64,000 nucleotides of DNA from positions 4,680 to 68,679 of the forward strand of contig JBGUKY010000022.1 in the NCBI GenBank assembly GCA_045114635.1. Reading direction: 5' to 3'. Shown piece by piece: positions 1-55,332 of the stretch. Made by a program: the position numbers and the translations under genes. How positions within the stretch are numbered: the first letter of the stretch is position 1; each line of letters opens with the position of its first letter. The notes beneath the pieces were generated by a model. That model did not search any database. It worked only from the letters and a program-made list of their open reading frames with translations, and was not told where the DNA came from. Source of the stretch: Candidatus Enterousia sp. GTDB lineage: Bacteria > Pseudomonadota > Alphaproteobacteria > Rs-D84.

Positions 1-47
1 TGTTAAAGTTCAGCGGGGCAAGCTGCCACGTGGTAAGAATACAATAA
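1..47 (+). CDS. 3' end of an upstream ORF cut by the window edge (product unknown)
   Basis: Frame 3 is open from the window edge to TAA at 45-47 (...LKFSGASCHVVRIQ*), ending 6 nt before the virB10-like start. Too short to identify. A virB9-like gene would fit the position, but that is context only. Confidence 0.25.
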   Translation, partial: LKFSGASCHVVRIQ

Positions 48-53
48 AAAGAA

Positions 54-2462
54 ATGAAAAGTTTAAAACAACAATTTAAAGAATTTCAAACAACTACGCC
101 TAAACATATCCAATGGATATTGTTGGGCGCGGCATTTGTTGTTGTTATAATTTTGTTGGTATTATTACTAGGTCACAAATCACACAGCACATCTGCTGAA
201 GAAATGAACGAAAATGTTTATCTTGATGTCGAACCTCAAGTAATAGATTTGACTAATGTAGAAATTGGAACATCAGACAGCAAAAATATCAATGTTTCTG
301 TCAATGCACCTGTTGTCATAGACAGTATTCATACCGGTGTTAATGAAATAAAAACAACGGATACTTGTGATAATCTGACCGATGTTTGTATAATTAAGGT
401 TATCTATCGTCCAACTGTTGAAAAAAAAGAATCTGATACCACATTGAAAATAAATTGGTATATCGAATCACAACCAGACATTATAAAAACTAGAGAGGTT
501 TCTGTAAAATATTCTTCGTGGAAAAAAGAAGAAAAAAAACCAGAGCCTGTCATAATTCCTGAACCAGAACCAATTATTATAGAAGAACCAGAAATAATTG
601 AACCAGAACCAATTATTCCAAAGGCTGTTGAAGAAATAAAAACTATCGCAGTTGAAAATCCTTTCAAAGAAGATCCTGTTGAAAAGTTTGCATTGCCACC
701 TGAAAAATGTTCTGAATTCGCAATTCCAGGTTATGATCAATCTGGTCGTCAAATTGGTTGGATAAAACCAGAACGTGGTGCAAATTATTTTCATCCTTTT
801 TCTGATAAAGATTGTTCGAATCCAACTGGTAAATATGATTTGGCAACCGGTATTATAACCTCGTTATCTGATGGGTCAAAAATTGGTACTGATTCAGATC
901 ATATTGGTTATCGCAATGTACGTTCTCGTAATTTAACTGTTCCTCAACTAAGTGCACCAAAATCATTAACAAGCAATGGTAAGTTTAGTGCAGATGCAGT
1001 TTGGGAAGCGACAGATACCGAAGGTAATGCAATAATAGCACAAGAAGTAAAAAAATTCGATAAAACAGCAACAGAGGATTTTGACAAACTTGCATTAAAA
1101 GGTTCTGGTTTTGATGCTGAATCAGTAACGTCTTCACGTCCATATGACCGTACATTTATATTACGTCAATTCAAACCTATTCCTGCAACAATAGTATCCG
1201 AAGTTCGCGCAGACCCAAGTGTTTACGGTTACAACAAAAATGGCGGAATACCTGAAAATGGAAAAAACGAAAATTACAGCATACCAGTTCGCGCAACAGT
1301 CGATAGAAATGTTTATTCTGATGATGGTCGCACAATAATATTACCAACAGGAACATTATTAATGGGGTATTTGGACGGCAACTTACCAGGTCCTTATCAG
1401 GCATTTGGACGCATGAATATAAAATGGTATCAATTTATTCGTCCAGATGGTGTAGAGTTTAACTTTACGGAAGGCCAAGATCCTTATTCGGCTGACGCCC
1501 AAGGTCGTATGGGGGTTCCAGGACATGGAAGTACTGATTATGTAGAACAAATGGTTATGCCAATTTTAACATCGCTTGTTCCAGCGGCGGTTAATATGAT
1601 TGCTCCAATAGCAGATACTGTTATCAATCAAATTGATTTGGATAATAACACAATTGTTCAATCTGGAACAATTCGTTCTTCAGAATTGGCAAAACAGGAA
1701 GTTATAAATACATGGAATAAAATAACCCAAAAATTATTAGTAGATGCAATTGATAATACTGTTCCACCATTTTCAATTGCTGCTGGTACACGTATAAATG
1801 TATTTTCTCCTGTCGATTTAGTTGTCACATGTGATGAAAATATAAACAAGGGTAAAAAATGTGCATTTACAACGTACAGCAATAATCCACGTCGTAGATG
1901 GGCAGATCTGAAAGATAGAGCGCGACCAAATACTCAAGATTCTTCTTGGGTTGGTCAAGTACGTTCATTTGATTTGATGCAATATTGCAGTACAGATAGC
2001 AATGGTAAAGTTTCTATTGGATCAAATTGGGCATCTTCTGGATATGATTACAGAACAGTTTATATGTACTGTGAATCACAAAATTATCAAGCCAAGAATA
2101 ATGCAAAACAAGCGGCTTACACAGAAAGCGTTAAACAACAAGCAGAAAAGAAATATGGCAACATCCAATTTAATCAAACAAAAGGCATATATGATACAAG
2201 TGGTCAAACTGCAGAACAACAAAAAGCATATAATCAAGATATACTTGGTTTGAAATATGATGATGAAGATAACATTATAAATCCTTGGGCAACACCAGCC
2301 GCTGATCCGATAGTTGAAGAAGTATTAACTTGTGATGATGGCAGTGCGCCTGATATGAACGGTTGTTGCGCAGGCGAAACATATACTGATATGGGTGATC
2401 AAGGATTCAATTGTTGTCCAGATAGCGGTGGTGATTGTTTTCCACCAATAGAAGTTAATTAA
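54..2462 (+). CDS. virB10: VirB10/TrbI-family type IV secretion protein, unusually long (802 aa) with extra N-proximal and C-terminal regions
   Basis: Single N-terminal TM helix (WILLGAAFVVVIILLVLLLG). Pro/Glu-rich spacer (PEPVIIPEPEPIIIEEPEIIEPEPIIP). Residues ~362-592 carry VirB10/TrbI barrel-domain hallmarks (IPATIVSEV..., VRATVDRNVYSDDGRTIILPTGTLLMGY, RMNIKWYQFIRPDGVEF, DAQGRMGVPGH, AAGTRINVFSPVDLVV). An intrinsic terminator follows. Confidence 0.8.
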   Translation: MKSLKQQFKEFQTTTPKHIQWILLGAAFVVVIILLVLLLGHKSHSTSAEEMNENVYLDVEPQVIDLTNVEIGTSDSKNINVSVNAPVVIDSIHTGVNEIKTTDTCDNLTDVCIIKVIYRPTVEKKESDTTLKINWYIESQPDIIKTREVSVKYSSWKKEEKKPEPVIIPEPEPIIIEEPEIIEPEPIIPKAVEEIKTIAVENPFKEDPVEKFALPPEKCSEFAIPGYDQSGRQIGWIKPERGANYFHPFSDKDCSNPTGKYDLATGIITSLSDGSKIGTDSDHIGYRNVRSRNLTVPQLSAPKSLTSNGKFSADAVWEATDTEGNAIIAQEVKKFDKTATEDFDKLALKGSGFDAESVTSSRPYDRTFILRQFKPIPATIVSEVRADPSVYGYNKNGGIPENGKNENYSIPVRATVDRNVYSDDGRTIILPTGTLLMGYLDGNLPGPYQAFGRMNIKWYQFIRPDGVEFNFTEGQDPYSADAQGRMGVPGHGSTDYVEQMVMPILTSLVPAAVNMIAPIADTVINQIDLDNNTIVQSGTIRSSELAKQEVINTWNKITQKLLVDAIDNTVPPFSIAAGTRINVFSPVDLVVTCDENINKGKKCAFTTYSNNPRRRWADLKDRARPNTQDSSWVGQVRSFDLMQYCSTDSNGKVSIGSNWASSGYDYRTVYMYCESQNYQAKNNAKQAAYTESVKQQAEKKYGNIQFNQTKGIYDTSGQTAEQQKAYNQDILGLKYDDEDNIINPWATPAADPIVEEVLTCDDGSAPDMNGCCAGETYTDMGDQGFNCCPDSGGDCFPPIEVN
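560..617 (+). repeat. in-frame 19-bp perfect direct repeat (39-bp period) within the Pro/Glu-rich spacer of the VirB10-like gene
   Basis: TGAACCAGAACCAATTATT occurs at 560-578 and 599-617, encoding the repeated EPEPII units. Confidence 0.85.
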
Positions 2463-2490
2463 AAGATCCGCGAAAGCGGATTTTTTTATT
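2461..2490 (+). terminator. intrinsic terminator after virB10-like gene
   Basis: ATCCGC-GAAA-GCGGAT stem-loop followed by TTTTTTTATTT. Confidence 0.75.
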
Positions 2491-2661: not shown

Positions 2662-3015
2662 ATGTTATTAAATACGATAAAAAAAGATGAAGTATCAACA
2701 ACAGAAAAATTTCAAAATGCAGAACAATTGTGGTTTTGGTTTTTATATTCAAAATCTGTACAAAATGGCTTCCATTATCACCGTTCTTCAATTAAACGCC
2801 CGTGCGAAATATTAGATGTAGAAACACTTGTCACCAAACTTTATTTATGTGGCAAACTAAGTGCAGACCAATTAGATGTTATGAAAAAATTTGGCGATAA
2901 AAAACGTGCGCCACACCAATATATTTATTCTGAAAATCGTGCAGCAGCACTTTGGCGATCTGCTATGGATGTGTTGACTATTTACGCATCAAAAAAAGGT
3001 TGGTTGGTTGATTAA
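2662..3015 (+). CDS. hypothetical protein (117 aa), no family recognised
   Basis: Strong SD (AAGGAG) 8 nt upstream of the ATG. No competing ORF. Lies between two terminator-like hairpins together with the next gene. Confidence 0.65.
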   Translation: MLLNTIKKDEVSTTEKFQNAEQLWFWFLYSKSVQNGFHYHRSSIKRPCEILDVETLVTKLYLCGKLSADQLDVMKKFGDKKRAPHQYIYSENRAAALWRSAMDVLTIYASKKGWLVD

Positions 3016-3030
3016 AAAAGGACAAATGAT

Positions 3031-3369
3031 ATGTTATATATAGGTTTTTCGAATTATTCTCATAAAATTCATTCAAAAATATTTTGTCATAAATATAAAC
3101 ATTGCGCACCTGTTATAATTAATAACAATAGTGTTATAATTTATCAGTTTGTTTGTATAGGTAAAATCGTAAAAATAACCATTAAAAGAAATGATTTAAA
3201 AACACTTAAAAAGCACGGCTGGACATTTGTAAGATATTCCAGAATATCTAAACCAATAATAATAAAACGTGGTTTAACTTGTGTTCAATTTACTAAAAAT
3301 GTGTGTGGCATAAAAAATATTATGCTACAAACGCCACTTGCTTTATTCAAGTATTTACAAACCAAATAA
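3031..3369 (+). CDS. hypothetical protein (112 aa); weak His...Cys pattern reminiscent of permuted NlpC/P60-LRAT hydrolases
   Basis: SD-like AAGGA upstream of the ATG. The motifs KHCAPVI ... LTCVQFT loosely resemble the H-x-[GA]-[IV] ... [NT]C-x-x-F order of permuted papain-like enzymes. The protein is short and this is not a confident assignment. Confidence 0.55.
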   Translation: MLYIGFSNYSHKIHSKIFCHKYKHCAPVIINNNSVIIYQFVCIGKIVKITIKRNDLKTLKKHGWTFVRYSRISKPIIIKRGLTCVQFTKNVCGIKNIMLQTPLALFKYLQTK

Positions 3370-3393
3370 AAATGCCCAAACGGGCATTTTTAT
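3366..3393. terminator. bidirectional intrinsic terminator between the 3031..3369 ORF and yidC
   Basis: AATGCCC-AAAC-GGGCATT flanked by A and T runs. Confidence 0.7.
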
Positions 3394-4937
3394 TTAATTG
3401 TCTTTTTTATTATATACATTTGTAAAATACCAAATAAGTTAGATACTGTCCAATAAAGAACTAATCCGGCCGGCATCCATGCAAACATCACTGTAAACAA
3501 CACAGGCATCCATTTCATTACGCGTTGTGTAGATGCTGTAATATCATTTGCGTTTGATGTTTGTTTTGGCGATTGTAAATATTGTTGCAACCACATTGTT
3601 GCCCCCATCAATATTGGCAATATAAAATAAGGATCCATAACCGCTAAATCAGATATCCACAAAAAGTGTGCGGAACGCATTGGTACAGATATCAGTAAAG
3701 CTTTATATAATGCAAAAAAGATTGGAATCTGTATCAACATTGGCAAACATCCAGACATCGGTGAAGTTTTATGTGTTTGATAAACCTTCATCATTTCCAT
3801 TTGAAGGCGTGCTTTATCATTAGCATATAATTTTTGAACACGTTGTAATTCTGGTTGCATTCTTTGCATCGCCATTGTTGAAACGTATGATTTACGTGTC
3901 AATGGCCATATCAACAATCTTAAAATCAGCGTCATCAAAATAATTGCAATACCATAATTACCAACCAAAACATACAACCAATTTATCATCCATAACATAG
4001 GTTGTGCGAAAAACCAGAACCAACCATAATCCATTGTTTTTGACAATCCTGGAATATTATGTGACGCAGCCTTTAATACATCACTTTGACGTGGCCCAGC
4101 GAAAACAAAAGTGTTTATTTCTGAATCTTGTTTTGCAGCAATTTTAACAGGTGCTACATTTGTTTGTGCAAAATATAAATCACCACTCTTCTTCAAACTT
4201 ATTGTTTGGTCTTTGGCATCAATAGAAGCAACTGTTTCCCAATATTGTTCTGCAAACCCAAAAGATGCATTAACCGAAGAATACGCGAAAGATTTTTTAT
4301 TTAATTTATTCCAATTCACATAGTCTAAATTAGAATTAGCATAAACAACACCACCCGTTTCAACAGCAGCAGATGTTTTATCATTTGCGTTTTGTGTAAT
4401 TTGAACATATGGCGCAACACTGATTTCTTTGTTTGAATTATTTTTAATTGTATCAGATATCTTTATAACATAGCCTTCAACTGATATATTACGTGTAAAA
4501 TGAACATTAGAAGCGTTCCAATGCATTACACCATTTTTCAATTCCCAATGTGTGTTTATATTTGGAACACTAACATCAGATGATACATAACCAATTTCAA
4601 CAAAGTTGTTTTCTTCATTTAATAACGCAACACGTTCATCAGATTTAGAATCTTTTTTATGTTTATTTAATGATACATTTGAAATACGCAATCCTTGAAC
4701 ATCAAAAGCAACATCTTCGCTTGCAATACTTTTCTTTGCAGTCTTAGATTGTTCAACAGTAATTGGCGCAACTTCTTTTATTTCTGTATTTTGTGGCTTA
4801 AACCATACACCCATTATCCACCATGCGAACAAGAACAATATCAACCACCACAAAAAACCAGAAAACTTTGATGGTTTTTGTGTGTTCATTTTATTCCACT
4901 GATTAAACCCAGATTGATTATCCATATATTGTACCAT
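3390..4937 (-). CDS. yidC: membrane protein insertase YidC
   Basis: 515 aa. N-terminal TM, a large periplasmic domain, then a C-terminal 5-TM core with typical YidC sequence (YGWFWFFAQPMLWMINW, IAIILMTLILRLLIWPLT, MQPELQRVQKLY, GCLPMLIQIPIFFALY). Confidence 0.9.
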   Translation of the reverse strand: MVQYMDNQSGFNQWNKMNTQKPSKFSGFLWWLILFLFAWWIMGVWFKPQNTEIKEVAPITVEQSKTAKKSIASEDVAFDVQGLRISNVSLNKHKKDSKSDERVALLNEENNFVEIGYVSSDVSVPNINTHWELKNGVMHWNASNVHFTRNISVEGYVIKISDTIKNNSNKEISVAPYVQITQNANDKTSAAVETGGVVYANSNLDYVNWNKLNKKSFAYSSVNASFGFAEQYWETVASIDAKDQTISLKKSGDLYFAQTNVAPVKIAAKQDSEINTFVFAGPRQSDVLKAASHNIPGLSKTMDYGWFWFFAQPMLWMINWLYVLVGNYGIAIILMTLILRLLIWPLTRKSYVSTMAMQRMQPELQRVQKLYANDKARLQMEMMKVYQTHKTSPMSGCLPMLIQIPIFFALYKALLISVPMRSAHFLWISDLAVMDPYFILPILMGATMWLQQYLQSPKQTSNANDITASTQRVMKWMPVLFTVMFAWMPAGLVLYWTVSNLFGILQMYIIKKTIK

Positions 4938-48729: not shown

Positions 48730-50022
48730 TTATTTTTTTATTGCTGACGCCCATTTTTTAAGGTTTTCCCACATTATATTTATGTCTTTTTTTGCTGTTT
48801 CATAGTATTTATCTGATATTTGTATCTTGAAAAGCATATTGGTCAATTGCGGGATCATAGTCATAAACATGGCAATAAACACACCCATTAACAAAAAGGT
48901 GATCATGTTATAATCCTGGAAAATCAAGCTGTCCATCAACATTTTCGAATCGTTACTTGCGATTGCTTGTTGTAAAACATTCGCGCCTGTCCACCCACCA
49001 AATGCAGCGTTAATAAACATAACAGAGAAACCCAAAAATACTACAGTCAAAGCAATTCCGACAACTGCTTTTATTACGTCGTCTATCATTTGGCGAATCG
49101 TTCTGCCACCTTTTGGAAACAAAGCAAAGTTTTCATCATCAAACATCCAAGACATCAACATCAACGGCAACATTACCAAATCCATAGATAATTTTATAAA
49201 AATTTCCAGGAAATACAGCGGTATTGGCAAAAGAGCGAAAAAATACAAAACCAATATTAAAATTCCACAAAATAAAATCGGAATATTTGGGAAAATTGGG
49301 ACATTTGCCAATATTTTGTGCATATAATCTGTATCAAATGCCATATTCATCATGGTCCAACCAACAGTCATACCCAAACCTGTCACTTGATGAACATTTG
49401 CAACCTCACATGCCAATTGGTGCCTTAGTTTTGGCGAAAAAGCACCATACGCTGATGCCTCTGATGATACAGACACAGGGTCAGCAAGCGCTGTTGCAAC
49501 CATACACTCTGAAAATTTATTATTATCAGATACGATATAATCAAAAGAAGTCCCTATTACCAATGCTGGTTCAATCAATACATTTGTTATCAAGCGCGGC
49601 AACGGCAACAATAACAAAACAATCAACACACCTAACCTGAAAATATGTGTTCCGAAATTACCCATTATTTTTGATACATTGTCCACTTTATTGTTCAGAG
49701 TTCCGTATAACAAATTCCAAGCAATAAAAATTGCTAATAATGTCGCAGACATAGGGATTATGACATGCGATAGCGCAGACCAAACCTTTGGCAACAAGTC
49801 TGACATAGAAATCATAACATCAGAAAAAATCTGACATGTCCAACATGATGTAAAGAAATCCAGTGCGTCTTTGATATTCACAGGCGCGGCTGTACGCCAT
49901 ATTGAAACTCCTATAATACCGACACCTACTGCGGCCCCACCCAAAACAAACGGGGCGACACCCCAAGATGACATTGGTAATAATGCTAAAAACCACAACC
50001 AAAACTTTTTTAATACTTTCAT
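48730..50022 (-). CDS. polytopic membrane protein, paralogue A of a five-member family (candidate VirB6/TrbL-like)
   Basis: 430 aa from ATG 50022 (MKVLKKFWLWFLALLP...). Many TM segments, SCWTCQIF motif, PRLITNVLIEPALV helix, Lys-rich tail WENLKKWASAIKK. The track start at 50100 is a GTG overlapping the divergent gene, so I disfavour it. Confidence 0.7.
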   Translation of the reverse strand: MKVLKKFWLWFLALLPMSSWGVAPFVLGGAAVGVGIIGVSIWRTAAPVNIKDALDFFTSCWTCQIFSDVMISMSDLLPKVWSALSHVIIPMSATLLAIFIAWNLLYGTLNNKVDNVSKIMGNFGTHIFRLGVLIVLLLLPLPRLITNVLIEPALVIGTSFDYIVSDNNKFSECMVATALADPVSVSSEASAYGAFSPKLRHQLACEVANVHQVTGLGMTVGWTMMNMAFDTDYMHKILANVPIFPNIPILFCGILILVLYFFALLPIPLYFLEIFIKLSMDLVMLPLMLMSWMFDDENFALFPKGGRTIRQMIDDVIKAVVGIALTVVFLGFSVMFINAAFGGWTGANVLQQAIASNDSKMLMDSLIFQDYNMITFLLMGVFIAMFMTMIPQLTNMLFKIQISDKYYETAKKDINIMWENLKKWASAIKK

Positions 50023-50029
50023 GATTTTA

Positions 50030-50038
50030 ATTATACCA
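50030..50038 (-). promoter_or_regulatory. extended -10 element (TGgTATAAT) on the minus strand, 7 nt upstream of the paralogue A ATG
   Basis: Minus strand reads TGGTATAAT-TAAAATC-ATG. If functional it would give a leaderless or near-leaderless mRNA. Confidence 0.3.
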
Positions 50039-50054
50039 CAAATTAAGATAAATG

Positions 50055-50063
50055 TGATATAAT
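50055..50063 (+). promoter_or_regulatory. extended -10 element (TGaTATAAT) for the four-gene paralogue B-E operon
   Basis: TGATATAAT at 50055-50063, 27 nt upstream of the ATG at 50091, with AAGAGAGA between them. Confidence 0.4.
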
Positions 50064-50090
50064 TCAATACATAAAAAATAAAAAGAGAGA

Positions 50091-51395
50091 ATGCACACAC
50101 AAAACACTGTGATATTGCGCTTGTTTAAGCATGCCCAAATGTTCTTTGGGGCGTTTGTTTTGTGCGCTTTTTTTACTAATTCTGCACACGCAGATATAAT
50201 CGACGCTTATAACCTTGCACCATTTGTTCCATTGGTTCTTGAAGAGATGATGAATATGGCAACATCTCTTTACAATTTCTTTGTCGGCAAAGGCGATGGA
50301 TTGATATATTTGTGCATTTATGCTTTTGTCGCTTTTTACATAGGGTTATATCTTGTCAAAATGCATTTACCAAAAGACTGGCTTTCATTTTTTGGTTTTT
50401 CAAATGGCGGTGAAATGTGGGAATCAAAAATTGACGTTTGGAAAATCACTGACAATGTTTTAAAACCTTGTATTCGTGCTATCGTGGCCGCTGTATTTTT
50501 ATTACAAATAAAACCAGTTTATGTAACAGAATGGTTGGTAAACCCATTCTTAGAATTCGGATCTATTTATACAGAACAGATTTTGAAAAACATAAATCAC
50601 TCTACATTATCCACCACAGATGCACCTGCTTGTCCTGCATCGATTGAAGAAAGCGGATGGATTTCAAAACGCAGTTGTGATTTTCTTGTTAAACCCGTCT
50701 ATGTAATTTCCCAAGAAAATAATAAAGTTATCAGATATGGTTTTAATTTTATAAAAACAGGTATTCGTGGCATGATGACATTGATACCACATGGCGGCGA
50801 AGATCTGTTAAACATAATAACAGGTATAATGCTATTGTTTGCTTTTATATCCGCAAATGTGTTTATGGCTCTGTTGATAATTGGTGCTATATTTGAATTC
50901 TGTCTGGCGCTTATCATGTATCCATTTAATGTATTGGGATGGGTCGCAAAAAAATCTGATCAATGGATGGATATTTGGCCCGCTTTCTCACAAATAATTA
51001 GTGCATTAAAAAATCTTATTATCACTATGATCGCTTGCGCTTTCATATTATGCGTAAACATCGCTATTGTTCACGCACTATTTAATTGGTCTTCATCTGT
51101 ATTCGTTGTTGCTGCGGGCGGCGTTTCTACAAGCAACGTTCCTTCTATTACAAACAGTGCGATGAATTTTGGGCAACACTCTATTTTGTGGTTATCAGCA
51201 TTATTGACATTCTTTTTGATGCAAAACATATTCAACACGACACGTGATAGATTAGATAAGGTGTACACGAAAGATACACCTAAAGATTTGTACAATAATG
51301 TAACAAACGATGTACAAACCTTGTGGAAAAAAATAAAAGCAACACCAGAAACAATAAAAAATATTGTATCTGCAGCAGAAAAAGCGAAGAAGTAA
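50091..51395 (+). CDS. polytopic membrane protein, paralogue B (signal peptide subtype; candidate VirB6/TrbL-like)
   Basis: 434 aa. Signal peptide ending SAHA, FVPL motif, YVTEWLVNPFLEF helix, IMYPFNVLGWVAKKSDQW core, Lys-rich tail. AAGAGAGA SD-like sequence upstream. Confidence 0.75.
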   Translation: MHTQNTVILRLFKHAQMFFGAFVLCAFFTNSAHADIIDAYNLAPFVPLVLEEMMNMATSLYNFFVGKGDGLIYLCIYAFVAFYIGLYLVKMHLPKDWLSFFGFSNGGEMWESKIDVWKITDNVLKPCIRAIVAAVFLLQIKPVYVTEWLVNPFLEFGSIYTEQILKNINHSTLSTTDAPACPASIEESGWISKRSCDFLVKPVYVISQENNKVIRYGFNFIKTGIRGMMTLIPHGGEDLLNIITGIMLLFAFISANVFMALLIIGAIFEFCLALIMYPFNVLGWVAKKSDQWMDIWPAFSQIISALKNLIITMIACAFILCVNIAIVHALFNWSSSVFVVAAGGVSTSNVPSITNSAMNFGQHSILWLSALLTFFLMQNIFNTTRDRLDKVYTKDTPKDLYNNVTNDVQTLWKKIKATPETIKNIVSAAEKAKK

Positions 51396-51398
51396 AAA

Positions 51399-52586
51399 AT
51401 GCAAGAATTGGCAAACTCTTTAATAGACAGCGGCATACAATGTTGGACATGTCCTATATTTGATACCTTGTTTGCCATAGTTTCTAATACTGCGGCGGCC
51501 GCATATCAACGCCTTTGTCTTTTCAGTGTTGTTATATTTGGTGTACTGTTTGCTTTTTATTGTCTTAACATTGTATGGCAAAACATAAAAAACGGTGCAA
51601 AAGATTCATTTTTTGATAAAACTTTGCGCCCAGTGCTAATAAAATCTTTAATAGCAATTAGTATATTGGGTATGGGCTTGGTCGTTCCAAGATTTATTTC
51701 CACAATAACGTTTGAACCAGTAGCCGTCGTAACTCTACAATACACAAAAATGCTTGTGCCACCTGATTATTCAATCCCCGCATATGAAAATGCTATTAAA
51801 CTTGGGGAAAATGGATTTTTTAATCCTGAATTGCGTGATACAATCATACAAATTTTAGAAACATCTATTGCTAATTTCCAAGTGTATATAAAAATTGGAA
51901 TCGCAATAATAAATGAAGCATTCACCATAAAAGCATTACATGGAATTGGTTCACTTATAAAACACATCATTATTTGTTTCATCGGCATATTCTTGACATA
52001 TAACTTTGTAAAATTGTTTATTAAATATTCTTTCTGTTTCATGGATGTTATCTTTGCAATGGCTATGTTCGCATTCTTTTTCCCATTATCTGTTGTGTTG
52101 TTCATATTCCGCGATGCAAAAGATGCTCCCGATTGGCTGAAAGGACTCGGTTCCAAATTGGGCGGCGGACAAATTAAAAAATTGATCAATGCAATTGCAT
52201 CTATGTCTGCTTCTATTTTGACATATACTGTTATCATGTTAATTATTCGTGGATTTCTTGATGCAAATGGTGTCAGTGCAGATTCTGTACAAAACACATA
52301 TGAATCTTTGTTCGATTTTGATTTAGAAAATTCAAGCGCTATGCAAATTACTTTTGCTGGCGCAATAGTATTAGTTTATGTTGTAAATTATATCGCAGGG
52401 AAAATACCACAAGTTACAGAAAAAATATTAGATGCATTTAATATCAAACAAGAAAACGAATTATCTGAATCGATGGGCAAGGATGCACTACAATTAACAC
52501 AAATAGTTTTTGATAAAACAAAAGAATTAGCAAAGACAATTATTAATCCAAAAGACACTAAAACCGAAGAAAAGAAAGAAAAATGA
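51399..52586 (+). CDS. polytopic membrane protein, paralogue C (CWxC subtype; candidate VirB6/TrbL-like)
   Basis: 395 aa. QCWTCPIF motif, PRFISTITFEPVAV helix, FFFPLSVVLFIFRDAKDAPDWLKG core, KTEEKKEK tail. 3-nt gap after paralogue B. Confidence 0.75.
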   Translation: MQELANSLIDSGIQCWTCPIFDTLFAIVSNTAAAAYQRLCLFSVVIFGVLFAFYCLNIVWQNIKNGAKDSFFDKTLRPVLIKSLIAISILGMGLVVPRFISTITFEPVAVVTLQYTKMLVPPDYSIPAYENAIKLGENGFFNPELRDTIIQILETSIANFQVYIKIGIAIINEAFTIKALHGIGSLIKHIIICFIGIFLTYNFVKLFIKYSFCFMDVIFAMAMFAFFFPLSVVLFIFRDAKDAPDWLKGLGSKLGGGQIKKLINAIASMSASILTYTVIMLIIRGFLDANGVSADSVQNTYESLFDFDLENSSAMQITFAGAIVLVYVVNYIAGKIPQVTEKILDAFNIKQENELSESMGKDALQLTQIVFDKTKELAKTIINPKDTKTEEKKEK

Positions 52587-54037
52587 TAAAAAAGTGGTTG
52601 ATAGAAACAGGCTTAAAACTTTTAATCGGCGCAATAGCGTTAGGTGTCGGCATTTGGTATTTAAGCAGTTCTATTGGGGGCGCATCACTTTCTTATACAA
52701 GCCTTGATAATTTTATGCAACAAATAGGTACTCAAAACGGGGATCTTTCTTCGATCAACGGATGTTTTTTGTGTGTATATCTTGCTGAATTGTTCGCGGT
52801 CATAGGACGCGCTACAGAATTATTATGGTCAGGTATCGTACATCATTTATGGATACTTATGGCTGTGGGCTTTGGTATATTCATAGTATTTCACACATTG
52901 ACATTTATCAGAGAACAATCAACATCAAAAGATATAAAAGATTTAACAGATAAAGAAGTTAAACTTGATTTCAAAAAATGGTTTGAAAAAGTTTGGAAAA
53001 CCGGAATCCGTGTATTGATTGCTGGCGCATTAATCGGCGCATTAAATTGGGGCGGAACAAACACATTGAAAACTGTTTCAAATGTTATTGTTACACCCGT
53101 CACATATCTTGGTACAACATTCGCAACGATTGCAACAGGTGTTATAAATGGTGCAAAATGTGAAATACCAGAATACAGCAACAAAGCAGAAGATATTTTA
53201 ATTCCTGTATCTCATCCTTTGATGTGTGCAATCGGAAATCTGAATACAGTAATGTTGGCTGGTGCAGGTGGTGGTTTTGCTTTGATGAATTATGCATGGC
53301 TTGATTTGAATGATCGTGCTGGTGGTGTATTTACTTGGCTCGCAGGTCTTGCGCTCGTGATAATGTTCCTTGTTATCGGATTTGATTTGTTGTTCAAAAT
53401 ATTGAGTGTATTCTTTAAACTTGTATTTATTATTATCTTTATGCCTCTTTTGATTGCAGCGGCAGCTTTTGAACAAGTATGGGGATTGGCCAAAGGATTG
53501 TTTGATAACGCAGTAAAAATGCTTATTACTTCTGCAGTAAGTATATTAAAGATATGCTTAAAAATAGTTGTTATCTATGCTGTTGTATATTTTGCAGCAG
53601 ACACATTTTATCCTGGCCCAGAAGATGGATTCACAAGCATATTACCACCAATGGTTTCAAATATAAAATCGGAAAACATGGATGCTAAAACAATGTCTGT
53701 AATAAATGTATTTTCTACATGTGAAAAAGTGGCTTTGATTGATGGTAAAATGGACAAAGATAAATTCACTACATGTTTTAAGACACAAAAAAATATTGTT
53801 GAAAAAAAGTATCCTGATGCATTTGATTTTATGGATGATGGATTTGACTTTTTGTTATTTATGATTGGTGTATTCTTGTTATACTTTTGGATTGTTTCGC
53901 CAGAAATTGATAAAATATTTGGCAAAGAAGACAAAGAAACATTCGATTACGGCGGATGGCTTAAAGATTTTGGAAAGTCAGTATATGATGCACCAATGAA
54001 AATATTCCAGGCAGTTCATGATAAATCAAAAAAGTAA
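52583..54037 (+). CDS. polytopic membrane protein, paralogue D (CxxC subtype; candidate VirB6/TrbL-like)
   Basis: 484 aa. GCFLCVYL motif, NVIVTPVTYL helix, IIFMPLLIAAAAFEQVWGLAKG core, VHDKSKK tail. ATGA overlap with paralogue C. Confidence 0.75.
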   Translation: MIKKWLIETGLKLLIGAIALGVGIWYLSSSIGGASLSYTSLDNFMQQIGTQNGDLSSINGCFLCVYLAELFAVIGRATELLWSGIVHHLWILMAVGFGIFIVFHTLTFIREQSTSKDIKDLTDKEVKLDFKKWFEKVWKTGIRVLIAGALIGALNWGGTNTLKTVSNVIVTPVTYLGTTFATIATGVINGAKCEIPEYSNKAEDILIPVSHPLMCAIGNLNTVMLAGAGGGFALMNYAWLDLNDRAGGVFTWLAGLALVIMFLVIGFDLLFKILSVFFKLVFIIIFMPLLIAAAAFEQVWGLAKGLFDNAVKMLITSAVSILKICLKIVVIYAVVYFAADTFYPGPEDGFTSILPPMVSNIKSENMDAKTMSVINVFSTCEKVALIDGKMDKDKFTTCFKTQKNIVEKKYPDAFDFMDDGFDFLLFMIGVFLLYFWIVSPEIDKIFGKEDKETFDYGGWLKDFGKSVYDAPMKIFQAVHDKSKK

Positions 54038-54048
54038 AGGGACAAAGA

Positions 54049-55332
54049 ATGCAGATTCGTAAAATTTTAAAACATTTGTTTATTTGTATTTTTTGTGCAA
54101 CTTGTTTTGTTGGCTCGTCTTATGCCGCTGGCAACATACCACATGGTGATATTGGCGAATACGGCAACTGGATAACCACCGACAACATGGCAAAATACAA
54201 AGATAATTTGTCTGGGGATGTTGAAAGTTTCCAACAAACATTTCAAACGAATTTACATTCTACAAATTTTGTCCCGCTAGAAGTTAAACTTGGCCTTTCT
54301 TTTATGAAAGCACTATCTGCTATTGATAAAGTATTACAAATATCACTTGTACGTTTTACAATAATATTCCTTTTCATAATGTATGCTTTTTGGATTGGAT
54401 TGGAAGCATACAGATTGATTCGTGACACGGGTGATTACAAGAAAGCTTTATACGATATATTTATCAATGGGATAAAGATTGCAGCATGGGTTATTGTATT
54501 AAATTATGGCCCTGCAAAATTATTCACAATACTTATAACACCAATACTTGCACTTAGTATAAGTTTATCTGATTTTATATTAAACGCTGTTGCACAATCA
54601 TACAATGTTGTTATTCCAGATACATGCGCAACAATACATCAATATGTTGATGCAAATACAACAGGACAACTTTTGATAGGTTCTGATGCAGCCGCTAACA
54701 TTATGTGTTTGCCTGCACGTCTTTCAGTATATTTTTATCATGCCACCGCAAGTGCTTTTGAATGGATGGTCAATGGGCTCAAGAATAATCTGACTATGTT
54801 TATTACTGGCGCAGTATGTGTTGTTATGTTCATTGGTTGTATATTCAAATATGCATTTATGACTCTTGGGGTTGTGGTCAACTTATTCTTAACTCTTTTG
54901 ATGTTACCTTTTACTGCTGTCGCTGAATCTTTACCAAAAACAAAAGAAACAAATTATGCAGGACAAATCTTTTCTGGATTTTTGGGACTATTCAAGACCA
55001 AGAAATTATCTGATGTAATATCTGTATTCATAGATGCCGCTATTTATTTTGTATCACTTTCTATTGTCATATCCATATGTGCTGCATTGCTAACCAATAT
55101 AATATCTATTACAGGACAAAATACTTATCATGTTGGATCTGCTATGACAAGTATATTATGCGCAGGTATAATATTTTACTTCGCAAATCAGGCAGACAAA
55201 TTGGCAAAAGACATTGGTGGCAAAATAGACAATTCATTTGGTGAACTTTTACAGAAAGATACAAAACAACTTTGGACTGACACAAAAAATCTCGGCGGAA
55301 AAATATTCAAAGCTTGGGCGAACAAAAAATAA
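54049..55332 (+). CDS. polytopic membrane protein, paralogue E (signal peptide subtype; candidate VirB6/TrbL-like)
   Basis: 427 aa. Signal peptide (VGSSYA), FVPL motif, FTILITPILAL helix, LLMLPFTAVAESLP core, KIFKAWANKK tail. AAGGGA SD upstream. Confidence 0.75.
   Translation: MQIRKILKHLFICIFCATCFVGSSYAAGNIPHGDIGEYGNWITTDNMAKYKDNLSGDVESFQQTFQTNLHSTNFVPLEVKLGLSFMKALSAIDKVLQISLVRFTIIFLFIMYAFWIGLEAYRLIRDTGDYKKALYDIFINGIKIAAWVIVLNYGPAKLFTILITPILALSISLSDFILNAVAQSYNVVIPDTCATIHQYVDANTTGQLLIGSDAAANIMCLPARLSVYFYHATASAFEWMVNGLKNNLTMFITGAVCVVMFIGCIFKYAFMTLGVVVNLFLTLLMLPFTAVAESLPKTKETNYAGQIFSGFLGLFKTKKLSDVISVFIDAAIYFVSLSIVISICAALLTNIISITGQNTYHVGSAMTSILCAGIIFYFANQADKLAKDIGGKIDNSFGELLQKDTKQLWTDTKNLGGKIFKAWANKK

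Follow-up and report, generated by a model that had tools for sequence, protein, structure and literature searches.

An enlarged VirB10 protein with a cysteine-rich C-terminal extension in a dispersed type IV secretion system of Candidatus Enterousia

Among the subunits of type IV secretion systems (T4SS), only VirB10 is known to us to cross both membranes and to act as the gate of the outer-membrane channel, and in every studied system known to us the barrel ends the protein. Together with VirB9 (and VirB7) it builds the outer-membrane core, a 14-mer that spans both membranes. The window (the whole analysed stretch of DNA, 64,000 nucleotides from a Candidatus Enterousia genome of the order Rs-D84) opens with a gene for a VirB10 homologue that continues far beyond its barrel and is not followed by virB11 or virD4. 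Is this long protein a genuine core subunit, what are its additional parts, and to which machine does it belong? The gene product is an envelope-spanning T4SS core subunit of about twice the usual VirB10 length: a canonical bitopic VirB10 (TrbI family) to which three extra folded periplasmic modules have been added.

Identity and architecture of the protein

The virB10 frame starts with ATG, its coordinates include the stop codon (Table 1), and the protein ends in ...CFPPIEVN. The original prediction had described an 802-aa frame with a TM helix, a Pro/Glu-rich spacer and a TrbI-type barrel, and this is borne out by the ORF and by a Pfam TrbI match (PF03743) of 57.7 bits (cut-off 35). The match covers aa 376-587 (profile positions 8-184 of 188) and thus places the barrel, predicted at aa 362-592, above threshold. 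The top NCBIfam match was VirB10 (NF038091, 60.9 bits, aa 412-589); this is far below the equivalog cut-off of 220, and the protein is therefore a divergent member of VirB10. Among PDB sequences the barrel matched ComB10, CagY and TrwE. Foldseek searches with the modelled barrel found TrwE (7o3j_A, E 3e-7) and CagY (6x6k_AY, E 1e-6), in a set of matches which also included X. citri VirB10, TraF and ComB10 (7o3j_A, 6gyb_C, 6x6k_AY, 3jqo, 2bhv; E 3e-7 to 4e-4). In a plasmid search (198 records) only the barrel was matched, with ~28% identity confined to aa 347-591; no record covered more than 30% of the protein and no extended VirB10 was found on plasmids.

Table 1. Features of the virB10 locus. 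Positions are those of the window, except for those prefixed C22, which refer to the whole contig that contains it.
Feature	Position	Strand	Basis or remark
virB8	C22:2545-3240		VirB8, 38.8 bits
3' end of virB9	1..47	+	gene starts upstream at C22:3260; 488 aa
virB10 homologue, 802 aa	54..2462	+	ORF, Pfam TrbI, Foldseek, full-length homologues in at least 80 species genomes
aa 1-41, short cytoplasmic tail and single TM anchor (WILLGAAFVVVIILLVLLLG)	54..176	+	sequence; AF2 helices 2-14, 17-39
aa 55-156, predicted Ig-like beta-sandwich, PapD/ASH type, invariant C105 and C112	216..521	+	AF2 pLDDT ~90; Foldseek
aa 161-215, Pro/Glu/Ile-rich spacer, predicted disordered	534..698	+	sequence; pLDDT <50
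aa 216-285, small, highly conserved predicted beta domain, invariant C219 and C254	699..908	+	pLDDT ~86; many invariant columns
aa 356-592, TrbI/VirB10 beta-barrel domain	1119..1829	+	Pfam, NCBIfam, PDB sequence matches, Foldseek
aa 495-567, two long helices and short loop, predicted antenna projection (outer-membrane channel)	1536..1754	+	AF2, analogy
aa 593-754, VirB10-specific part of extension, predicted alpha/beta, invariant C593, C603, C645, C673	1830..2315	+	
aa 755-802, terminal six-Cys module, C-x10-CC-x14-CC-x6-C-F-P-P	2316..2459	+	invariant C760, C771, C772, C787, C788, C795
terminator-like hairpin, end of virB8-virB9-virB10 operon	2461..2486	+	scan and sequence; 11-bp stem and T-run
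two small ORFs downstream of virB10	2662-3015 and 3031-3369		not virB11/virD4
five tandem, weakly paralogous polytopic membrane proteins, candidate VirB6 array	48730-55332		

The AF2 models predict four folded parts: the Ig domain, the small beta domain, the barrel with its antenna helices, and the tail. Their pTM is low (0.32 and 0.37), and the packing of the domains is not given by them. A TM anchor followed by a Pro-rich periplasmic region is the VirB10-type layout, and it is present here as a hydrophobic stretch at aa ~20-41, modelled as a helix at aa 17-39, and a PE-rich stretch at aa 161-215. Between them, a segment predicted as beta-strand-like at aa ~55-150 was assigned by AF2 and Foldseek to an Ig domain of the PapD/ASH type; its matches were the ASH/PapD-like domain of CEP192 (6fvi, E 9e-6, TMt 0.62), the PapD-like domain of HYDIN (2e6j, TMt 0.70) and pilus chaperones. 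The spacer contains a 15-nt unit twice and has a dN/dS of 0.16-0.58, and the beta domain that follows it has one of 0.03-0.10. No named relative was found for this beta domain, which also occurs in the VirB10 of other Rs-D84 families. Sister-family VirB10 proteins keep both the Ig and the mid domain, the former being weakly detectable. The N-terminal additions are thus spread across the order Rs-D84.

The barrel is modelled with moderate pLDDT and is under purifying selection (dN/dS 0.02-0.08). Its two long helices (495-525 and 540-567) have low pLDDT and a nearly invariant sequence, and are predicted to form the antenna by analogy to those of TraF and VirB10 (PMC6536674). The identity and architecture of the protein as a VirB10 with extra modules are held with high confidence. 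The view that it is a structurally elaborated core-complex subunit is supported by the HMM matches, the fold, the virB8 and virB9 genes upstream, and the conserved folded extra regions.

The C-terminal extension and its six-cysteine module

Beyond ...AAGTRINVFSPVDLVV the protein continues for 210 aa. About ten Cys had been counted in this extension and the number is exactly ten (positions in Table 1), all of them invariant in 81 sequences. The tail has a dN/dS of about 0.04-0.22 and a confident AF2 model (pLDDT 80), in which a beta-hairpin is predicted between the CC pairs of the six-Cys module, the last ~45 aa of the protein. Neither the tail nor the other proteins carrying the module had a match in Pfam, NCBIfam or PHROGs, and a profile of 50 diverse six-Cys modules searched against all PDB sequences gave none either (E<=10). 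With Foldseek no relative of the tail fold was detectable in the PDB; the weak matches included the granulin chains 1g26, 2jye and 2jyu. The six-Cys module thus appears to be a previously undescribed domain.

The module is not confined to VirB10. It was found in four architectures among the library matches (VirB10 and at least three other types of envelope protein), and the carriers, which have signal peptides or TM anchors, include an inner-membrane protein of ~700 aa whose periplasmic arm is rich in Pro, a 95-aa TM protein and small secreted proteins. In 143 of the 150 library matches it lies 1-17 residues from the C-terminus (within 7 in 142). A second copy is present in the source genome at C12:2012-2299. 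A ~590-aa membrane protein has the module in relatives and lacks it in the source genome, so in certain settings proteins can do without it. By its distribution, the module is a portable, lineage-placed C-terminal addition to unrelated exported or membrane-anchored proteins.

The tail as a whole has a narrower distribution. Within the order, all matches to the tail profile at E<=0.001 fall in a single family, bar one weak match. Sister-family VirB10 proteins (626-808 aa) reach the end of the barrel at residue 614-697 and have tails of 12-134 aa with at most two Cys. The tail is therefore specific to one family within Rs-D84 and was acquired in that family's ancestor.

What might such a tail do? 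It would decorate the outer-membrane core on the periplasmic side or serve it as a docking module, stabilised by disulfides; the original prediction had likewise proposed a disulfide-bonded addition on the outer-membrane side of the machine. The 14 Cys of the protein would form seven disulfides in the envelope, and fourteen copies of the extension would form an extra periplasmic ring or skirt on the core complex. This ring could stabilise the complex, perhaps replacing the undetected VirB7-type lipoprotein, while the six-Cys module may dock it to an envelope ligand also bound by other module-bearing proteins. Such a specific role (a disulfide-bonded periplasmic ring, stabilising and docking) is proposed tentatively, at a clearly less than even chance. 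It is unlikely that the six-Cys module is a lineage-specific docking domain which ties the T4SS core, the ~700-aa inner-membrane protein and the small secreted proteins to one outer-envelope or partner-cell ligand; if true, the VirB10 tail would physically couple the secretion channel to a structure with which this metabolically dependent bacterium touches other cells. As to the redox state, the genome encodes a membrane-anchored DsbA-like CPYC protein, with which oxidation in the envelope is plausible. DsbB was not found in the genome (~90% complete), which leaves the oxidation pathway incomplete as seen.

A surface-exposed tail, acting as an adhesin or a target-recognition domain for a partner cell, is unlikely. 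Cys-rich mini-domains are typical of extracellular proteins, and dependence on other cells has been predicted for the lineage (PMC12306168). In VirB10 the antenna loop does reach the surface (PMC6536674), but the tail comes after the last barrel strand and not in that loop, and no known VirB10 has the path through the outer membrane that the tail would require. Inner-membrane-anchored proteins with Pro-rich spacers, and the 95-aa TM protein, likewise end in the module, so a periplasmic location fits better. With a dN/dS of 0.11-0.22, the family-specific tail evolves more quickly than the barrel (0.02-0.08), yet its module is strongly conserved (0.04-0.11), unlike host-facing adhesin tips.

Metal binding (Zn or Fe-S) by the Cys clusters, which would make the tail a metal-stabilised or redox-sensing domain, is decidedly unlikely. 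Its two vicinal CC pairs at fixed spacing resemble laddered disulfide mini-domains, and the ligand patterns of His, Asp and Glu are absent. The ten invariant tail Cys and the undetected DsbB would suit this explanation, and the organism is an anaerobic fermenter without respiratory chains (PMC12306168), so that classical quinone-coupled disulfide formation is doubtful. However, the DsbA-like CPYC protein is present, and the signal peptides and TM anchors that precede the module place it outside the cytoplasm. The disulfide-stabilised periplasmic module is the preferred reading.

The virB8-virB9-virB10 operon and the dispersed system

Both virB8 and virB9, for which the region before position 1 was to be inspected, lie directly upstream of virB10 with gaps of 19 and 6 nt. 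VirB9 has a CagX/VirB9 domain (78.1 bits) and a C-terminal SPOR domain (21.5 bits, cut-off 21). The three genes form one operon beside secE-nusG-rplK. No gene for a VirB7-type small lipoprotein was found between nusG and virB8, where the gap is taken up by secE and a tRNA-like stretch. Downstream, the original prediction of a terminator followed by two unrelated small genes holds for the terminator hairpin. The word unrelated has to be amended: the two genes, which have no Pfam, NCBIfam or PHROGs match, are conserved next to virB10, in 79/80 and 76/80 relatives respectively. Synteny extends over the whole region, and this conservation therefore proves neither linkage nor its absence.

The rest of the machine is encoded elsewhere in the genome. 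VirB3 (24.8 bits) and VirB4 (401 bits) are encoded by paired genes on contig C21, a full-length VirB11 (TIGR02788, 148 bits) on C14 and a VirD4-type coupling protein on C8, with virB8-virB9-virB10 on C22. VirB4 and VirB10 gave one match each in the genome. Among the 42 high-quality genomes of the family, VirB4 was found in 41 and VirD4 in all. The statement that virB10 is not followed by virB11 or virD4 is thus correct for the locus; both genes sit on other contigs, and what looks like a gap is due to the scattering of the genes and not to their loss. An HMM search of the genome for VirB6 (Pfam TrbL) had no match. The five-gene array far downstream in the window had no Pfam or NCBIfam match, and shallow hhalign comparisons with three plasmid VirB6 proteins were negative. 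VirB2, VirB5 and VirB7 were not identified in the ~90% complete genome either, and the completeness of the machine is therefore not fully shown. The system is a chromosomal P-type (VirB/VirD4) T4SS, dispersed and rvh-like by gene layout, and not an orphan core.

The latter alternative, in which the virB8-virB9-virB10 trio would stand alone, either as an envelope conduit that works without ATPases or as a DNA-uptake core of the ComB kind, is highly improbable. It would agree with VirB6 escaping HMM detection and with a neighbourhood in which virB8 and virB9 are the sole further T4SS genes within ~45 kb of virB10 (position 48730 being the start of the candidate VirB6 array). An orphan, ATPase-free core is rejected because VirB3, VirB4, VirB11 and VirD4 are all encoded in the genome, VirB4 and VirD4 being near-universal in the family; a ComB-like system is rejected because ComB systems, to our knowledge, lack VirB11 and VirD4.

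The extension was also looked for in relatives, as had been suggested, and it was found in at least 80 species-level genomes (Candidatus Enterousia and relatives in the order Rs-D84), each with this full-length architecture and the complete set of ten Cys in the tail. The best 120 cluster representatives are 789-865 aa long (one exception, 679 aa) and 57-81% identical, and nearly all cover 98-100% of the query (76-84% in nine). The frame is open through the tail and the terminal Cys module in 80/80 independent genome loci, including a closed 958-kb chromosome, and purifying selection spans the barrel-tail junction. That an error of assembly or annotation joined virB10 to a downstream gene through a frameshift is practically impossible despite the unusual length and some library matches of 130-500 aa that span the tail alone, since 80 independently assembled genomes (one of them closed) share the continuous frame, the junction is under purifying selection, and the short matches, which begin within the barrel or the tail, resemble fragments cut off at contig edges. 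Taken as a whole, the explanation combining the VirB10 identity, the dispersed T4SS, the acquired modules and the role proposed for the tail is likely.

Significance and comparison with known systems

Bacteria of the Candidatus Enterousia lineage are abundant in gut and rumen and have genomes below 1 Mb, and we know of no described way in which they interact with partners. The genomic study of the Rs-D84 lineage makes no mention of secretion systems (PMC12306168), and a literature search found no paper that ties Rs-D84 to type IV secretion. A family-wide VirB/VirD4 machine is therefore a candidate for such interaction. With its natural, strongly conserved and folded 210 aa beyond the barrel, Enterousia VirB10 demonstrates that further structure can be added at this face of the core complex, and it gives structural studies of core decoration a starting point. 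The envelope proteins that carry the six-Cys module form a small set and merit joint study.

Canonical VirB10/TraF/TrwE proteins of P-type (MPF-T) systems (pKM101, R388, Agrobacterium and other alphaproteobacterial plasmids) share the bitopic topology, the Pro-rich spacer and the antenna barrel, and are likewise encoded after virB8 and virB9. The size and gene context expected of them were found in two alphaproteobacterial plasmid VirB10 proteins (403 and 407 aa), which end ~25 aa after the barrel and have virB11 and virD4 directly next, but the size was exceeded by a third, from an ordinary contiguous virB operon on an Erythrobacter megaplasmid (529 aa, ~76-aa tail). The reference plasmid proteins thus have 403-529 aa with 24-76 aa past the barrel, followed by virB11 and virD4, whereas Enterousia VirB10 has 802 and 210 aa; only in the latter is the barrel preceded by an Ig domain and a beta domain with two Cys.

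The rvh T4SS of Rickettsiales is likewise a chromosomal system of alphaproteobacteria with reduced genomes, and its genes are spread over several islets, with virB3-virB4 paired; the likeness is one of gene layout. The five tandem polytopic proteins recall rvhB6a-e, with VirB6 homology not reproduced in the shallow tests. Unlike Enterousia, with its single VirB4 and its virB11 and virD4 each alone, rvh has duplicated virB4, virB8 and virB9 and keeps virB8-9-10-11-D4 together. RvhB10 is of ordinary size.

Granulin-type laddered-disulfide beta-hairpin mini-domains, the source of some of the weak Foldseek matches, share with the six-Cys module the small size, the vicinal CC pairs and the predicted hairpin. 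For the tail as a whole there is an artificial parallel. GFP, at ~240 aa, is about the size of the tail. An X. citri VirB10-msfGFP chimera, whose name alone implies a C-terminal fusion, forms periplasmic T4SS foci and still kills (PMC7286519). A tail-sized partner in 14 copies is thus tolerated in a functional machine, with no relation in sequence or fold to the Enterousia tail; by this analogy, a tail after the barrel is sterically plausible. The N0-domain ring of X. citri VirB7 shows that cores can bear an extra peripheral ring (PMC6536674). That ring sits on a different subunit and is likewise unrelated to the tail in sequence and fold.

CagY of the Helicobacter Cag system and DotG of Dot/Icm also have the VirB10 barrel in a much larger protein with lineage-specific periplasmic structure. 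In both, all of the extra mass precedes the barrel, and the protein stops where the barrel does. Enterousia VirB10, in contrast, has a substantial folded domain after the barrel.

The virB10 frame and its conservation

The original prediction described an oversized VirB10/TrbI homologue, and every checked detail of its account of the reading frame proved correct. The membrane helix and the Pro/Glu-rich spacer are present (see table), and the TrbI-type barrel, placed at aa ~362-592, corresponds to a Pfam TrbI domain at aa 376-587 (57.7 bits against a cut-off of 35). Past the last barrel motif there are 210 further residues with exactly ten cysteines (about ten had been claimed), ending in ...CFPPIEVN. 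The NCBIfam VirB10 model is the top match for aa 412-589 at 60.9 bits, far from its equivalog cut-off of 220; the protein is too divergent for that model. The sequence also matched the solved structures of ComB10, CagY and TrwE. Pfam score, fold, topology and genomic neighbourhood all place the 802-aa protein in the VirB10/TrbI family.

Searching 5.8 billion proteins by word index yielded at least 912 relatives. The top 120 cluster representatives have lengths of 789-865 aa (679 aa in one case), share 57-81% identity with the query and in nearly all cases cover 98-100% of it (only 76-84% in nine). With each species represented by a single genome, a scan detected relatives in 154 genomes. The 80 loci kept, one of them on a closed 958-kb chromosome, bear labels such as Candidatus Enterousia or uncultured Alphaproteobacteria and come from the rumen and from the gut of horses, chickens and humans. 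The survey of relatives proposed for the extension found the frame uninterrupted through the tail (aa 593-802) and the terminal Cys motif in all 80. An assembly artefact as the source of the long frame is ruled out by the full-length relatives and these 80 open frames.

All ten tail cysteines are invariant in an alignment of 81 tail sequences, as are C105, C112, C219 and C254 in the full-length alignment. Pairwise dN/dS between VirB10 and seven relatives, rough because dS is near saturation, was 0.02-0.08 in the barrel, 0.03-0.10 in the small mid domain (aa ~216-285, two Cys), 0.04-0.11 in the terminal six-Cys module (the last ~45 aa), 0.11-0.22 in the rest of the tail, 0.15-0.35 in the Ig domain and 0.16-0.58 in the linkers.

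Features of virB10, its surroundings and other genes of genome G000 (window positions unless a contig, C2 to C22, or aa is named)
Feature	Location	Strand	Description
virB10	54-2462	+	802 codons, ATG start (ORF analysis)
VirB10 N-terminal tail			19 residues
VirB10 hydrophobic helix	aa ~20-41		single
VirB10 beta-rich stretch	between helix and spacer
VirB10 Pro/Glu/Ile-rich spacer	aa ~161-215
T-run hairpin	2461-2486		3' of virB10 stop; hairpin scan
Second terminator-like hairpin	2601-2627
orf117	2662-3015		117 aa; same position in 79/80 related genomes
orf112	3031-3369		112 aa; same position in 76/80 related genomes
14-bp-stem hairpin	3364-3395
Five tandem polytopic membrane protein genes	48730-55332	-; +	456 aa (-); 434, 395, 484, 427 aa (+)
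rplA, rplK, nusG, secE	C22, upstream of virB8	-
virB8	C22, upstream of virB9	+	231 aa; PF04335, 38.8 bits
virB9	C22:3260-4726, end at window 47	+	488 aa; CagX, 78.1 bits
virB3	C21, adjoins virB4		99 aa; PF05101, 24.8 bits
virB4	C21, adjoins virB3		804 aa; TIGR00929, 401 bits
virB11	C14		331-aa ATPase; best match TIGR02788, 148 bits, full length
VirD4-type coupling protein	C8		755 aa
GspE/PilB-type ATPase	C12:24835-26457	-	540 aa; PF00437, 223 bits
DsbA-like protein	C2:50758-51579	-	273 aa, membrane-anchored, CPYC active site; PF13462, 69.9 bits
95-aa module protein	C12:2012-2299	-	one TM helix, then module directly
214-aa membrane-anchored protein	C12:2302-2946	-
Coiled-coil membrane protein	C3:24951-26717	-	588 aa; cytoplasmic coiled coil, one TM helix, acidic/Pro-rich periplasmic arm

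Structure and origin of the added parts

An AlphaFold2 model built from a 62-sequence alignment has a mean pLDDT of 64, with confidence depending on the region. The beta-strand-like segment expected at aa ~55-150 was modelled as an all-beta domain at aa 55-156 (pLDDT ~90), and aa 220-285 are also beta (~86). The barrel, of moderate confidence, carries a pair of long helices (aa 495-525 and 540-567), assigned here to a putative antenna projection. Two tail parts, aa 640-745 and 760-800, are confident. In the Foldseek comparison with T4SS core structures that had been suggested, run against the PDB, the barrel matched the C-terminal domains of VirB10 proteins: TrwE (7o3j_A, E 3e-7), X. citri VirB10 (6gyb_C), CagY, TraF (3jqo) and ComB10. 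The N-terminal domain matched PapD/ASH-type Ig folds, namely CEP192 (6fvi, E 9e-6, TMt 0.62), HYDIN (2e6j, TMt 0.70) and pilus chaperones.

VirB10 proteins in other families of the order are long too (626-808 aa), with the barrel ending at residue 614-697, and they retain the Ig-like and mid domains with the respective Cys pairs. The barrel is followed there by a tail of either 12-35 aa or 65-134 acidic, low-complexity residues, with zero to two cysteines. Within the order, a profile of the window protein's tail matched 93 of 121 genomes, all from the window's own family except for one weak match; in an even sample of the class (301 genomes, 253 genera) only the window's genus was matched. The additions before the barrel are therefore shared across the order, and the tail arose in a single family. 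One divergent genus of this family lost the first four tail cysteines and kept the six-Cys module. The different post-barrel tails of sister-family members L101, L102, L104 and L105 (65-134 aa, acidic, low-complexity, Cys-poor) suggest that the VirB10 C-terminus is a recurrent site of addition in the order.

Gene neighbourhood and the rest of the machine

The window spans C22:4680-68679 of a genome assembly that comprises 873 kb in 22 contigs and is ~90% complete. The search upstream of the window found virB8 and virB9 directly before virB10, with intergenic gaps of 19 and 6 nt. At 488 aa, VirB9 is longer than the plasmid references (roughly 270-430 aa), and its C-terminus is a SPOR domain scoring 21.5 bits (cut-off 21). 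SPOR domains bind peptidoglycan, and this one would anchor the core complex in the cell wall. Downstream lie the terminator and two small genes that had been predicted. A second terminator-like hairpin lies ~110 nt past the first, just before orf117, and another hairpin separates orf112 from the convergent yidC. Relatives keep the order nusG / virB8-virB9-virB10 / orf117 / orf112 / yidC; this does not prove that orf117 and orf112 are part of the T4SS, since the flanking housekeeping genes are equally syntenic. Neither orf117 nor orf112 matched any family, PHROGs or PDB entry.

VirB3, VirB4, VirB11 and VirD4 are encoded on other contigs. Among evenly sampled genomes of the family, VirB4 was found in 41 of 42 of high quality and VirD4 in all 42 (61/61 overall). 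VirB10 is a component of a VirB/VirD4 machine that occurs throughout the family and is encoded at dispersed sites. A bare VirB8/VirB9/VirB10 core devoid of ATPases is contradicted by these genes. No VirB2, VirB5 or VirB7 was identified in the genome, and no protein in it matched Pfam TrbL (VirB6). The five tandem membrane proteins, weakly paralogous to one another, had no Pfam or NCBIfam match and did not match three plasmid VirB6 proteins by hhalign, a shallow profile-profile comparison; their layout recalls the rvhB6a-e array of Rickettsiales. The genome also encodes a GspE/PilB-type ATPase; type IV pili were not reported in a published genome survey of the lineage.

The six-Cys module, its proposed role and known systems

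With the tail alone as query, 217 matches were found among 1.84 billion representative proteins. Among them, the full tail is confined to the C-terminus of VirB10 homologues of ~800 aa, or of fragments of these. The module also forms the C-terminus of signal-peptide proteins of ~160-280 aa with one to three tandem copies, of proteins of ~680-850 aa (cytoplasmic coiled-coil region, one TM helix, Pro-rich periplasmic arm) and of ~90-aa TM proteins. The spacing C-x10-CC-x14-CC-x6-C is found in 100 of 159 modules, and in 143 of 150 proteins the module ends 1-17 residues from the C-terminus (within 7 in 142). No carrier has a Pfam family, and a profile of 50 modules matched no PDB sequence. Some carriers are Ala-rich and resemble proteins of higher-GC organisms, so the module may, judging from sequence, reach beyond the window's family.

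Complete Enterousia genomes contain three or four module-bearing genes; the studied genome has two, virB10 and the 95-aa TM protein gene. The latter adjoins the gene of the 214-aa protein, relatives of which bear the module themselves in other genomes (e.g. P0253, P0206). The 588-aa coiled-coil protein, encoded beside a GcrA-like gene, is without the module, which ends its orthologues in relatives (~700-850 aa).

All added domains would be periplasmic, because they follow the TM anchor; for the tail, a role as a surface-exposed adhesin is an improbable alternative. The 14 invariant cysteines are probably best explained as seven disulfides, and a metal-binding role of the tail is more improbable still. 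A DsbA-like protein is encoded; no match to DsbB (PF02600) was found in the ~90% complete genome of this non-respiring anaerobe. The tail is about GFP-sized. An X. citri VirB10-msfGFP chimera, a C-terminal fusion as its naming implies, forms periplasmic foci of assembled machines and still supports killing (PMC7286519, PMC6536674). There would therefore be room for fourteen tails at the C-terminal end of VirB10, where they may add a ring or skirt to the periplasmic side of the outer-membrane core, similar in principle to the X. citri VirB7 N0 ring and the Cag and Dot/Icm core accessory proteins. Other envelope proteins carry the same module at the tip of long flexible arms, which makes docking or anchoring to a shared envelope ligand a more likely function than a catalytic one specific to the T4SS. 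This specific role for the extension is tentative, possible rather than probable.

Secretion systems go unmentioned in a genomic study of these bacteria (PMC12306168), and no paper in the library searched connects Rs-D84 to type IV secretion. In three alphaproteobacterial plasmid virB operons used as yardsticks, virB11 and virD4 directly follow virB10 in every case, as had been stated for canonical systems. The stated size of 380-480 aa held for two plasmid VirB10s (403 and 407 aa, ending ~25 aa past the barrel match) but not for the third (529 aa, ~76 aa past it). PLSDB plasmid records matched no part of VirB10 except the barrel. The Enterousia system resembles the Rickettsiales vir homolog (rvh) T4SS in how it works and in layout, but it has neither the duplicated virB4 nor the virB11-virD4 pair after virB10 that are rvh hallmarks. 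To our knowledge, a conserved folded post-barrel VirB10 domain ending in a portable Cys module has not been described. CagY and DotG, the known oversized VirB10s, carry their extra mass before the barrel only, whereas the Enterousia VirB10 has a conserved folded domain after it.
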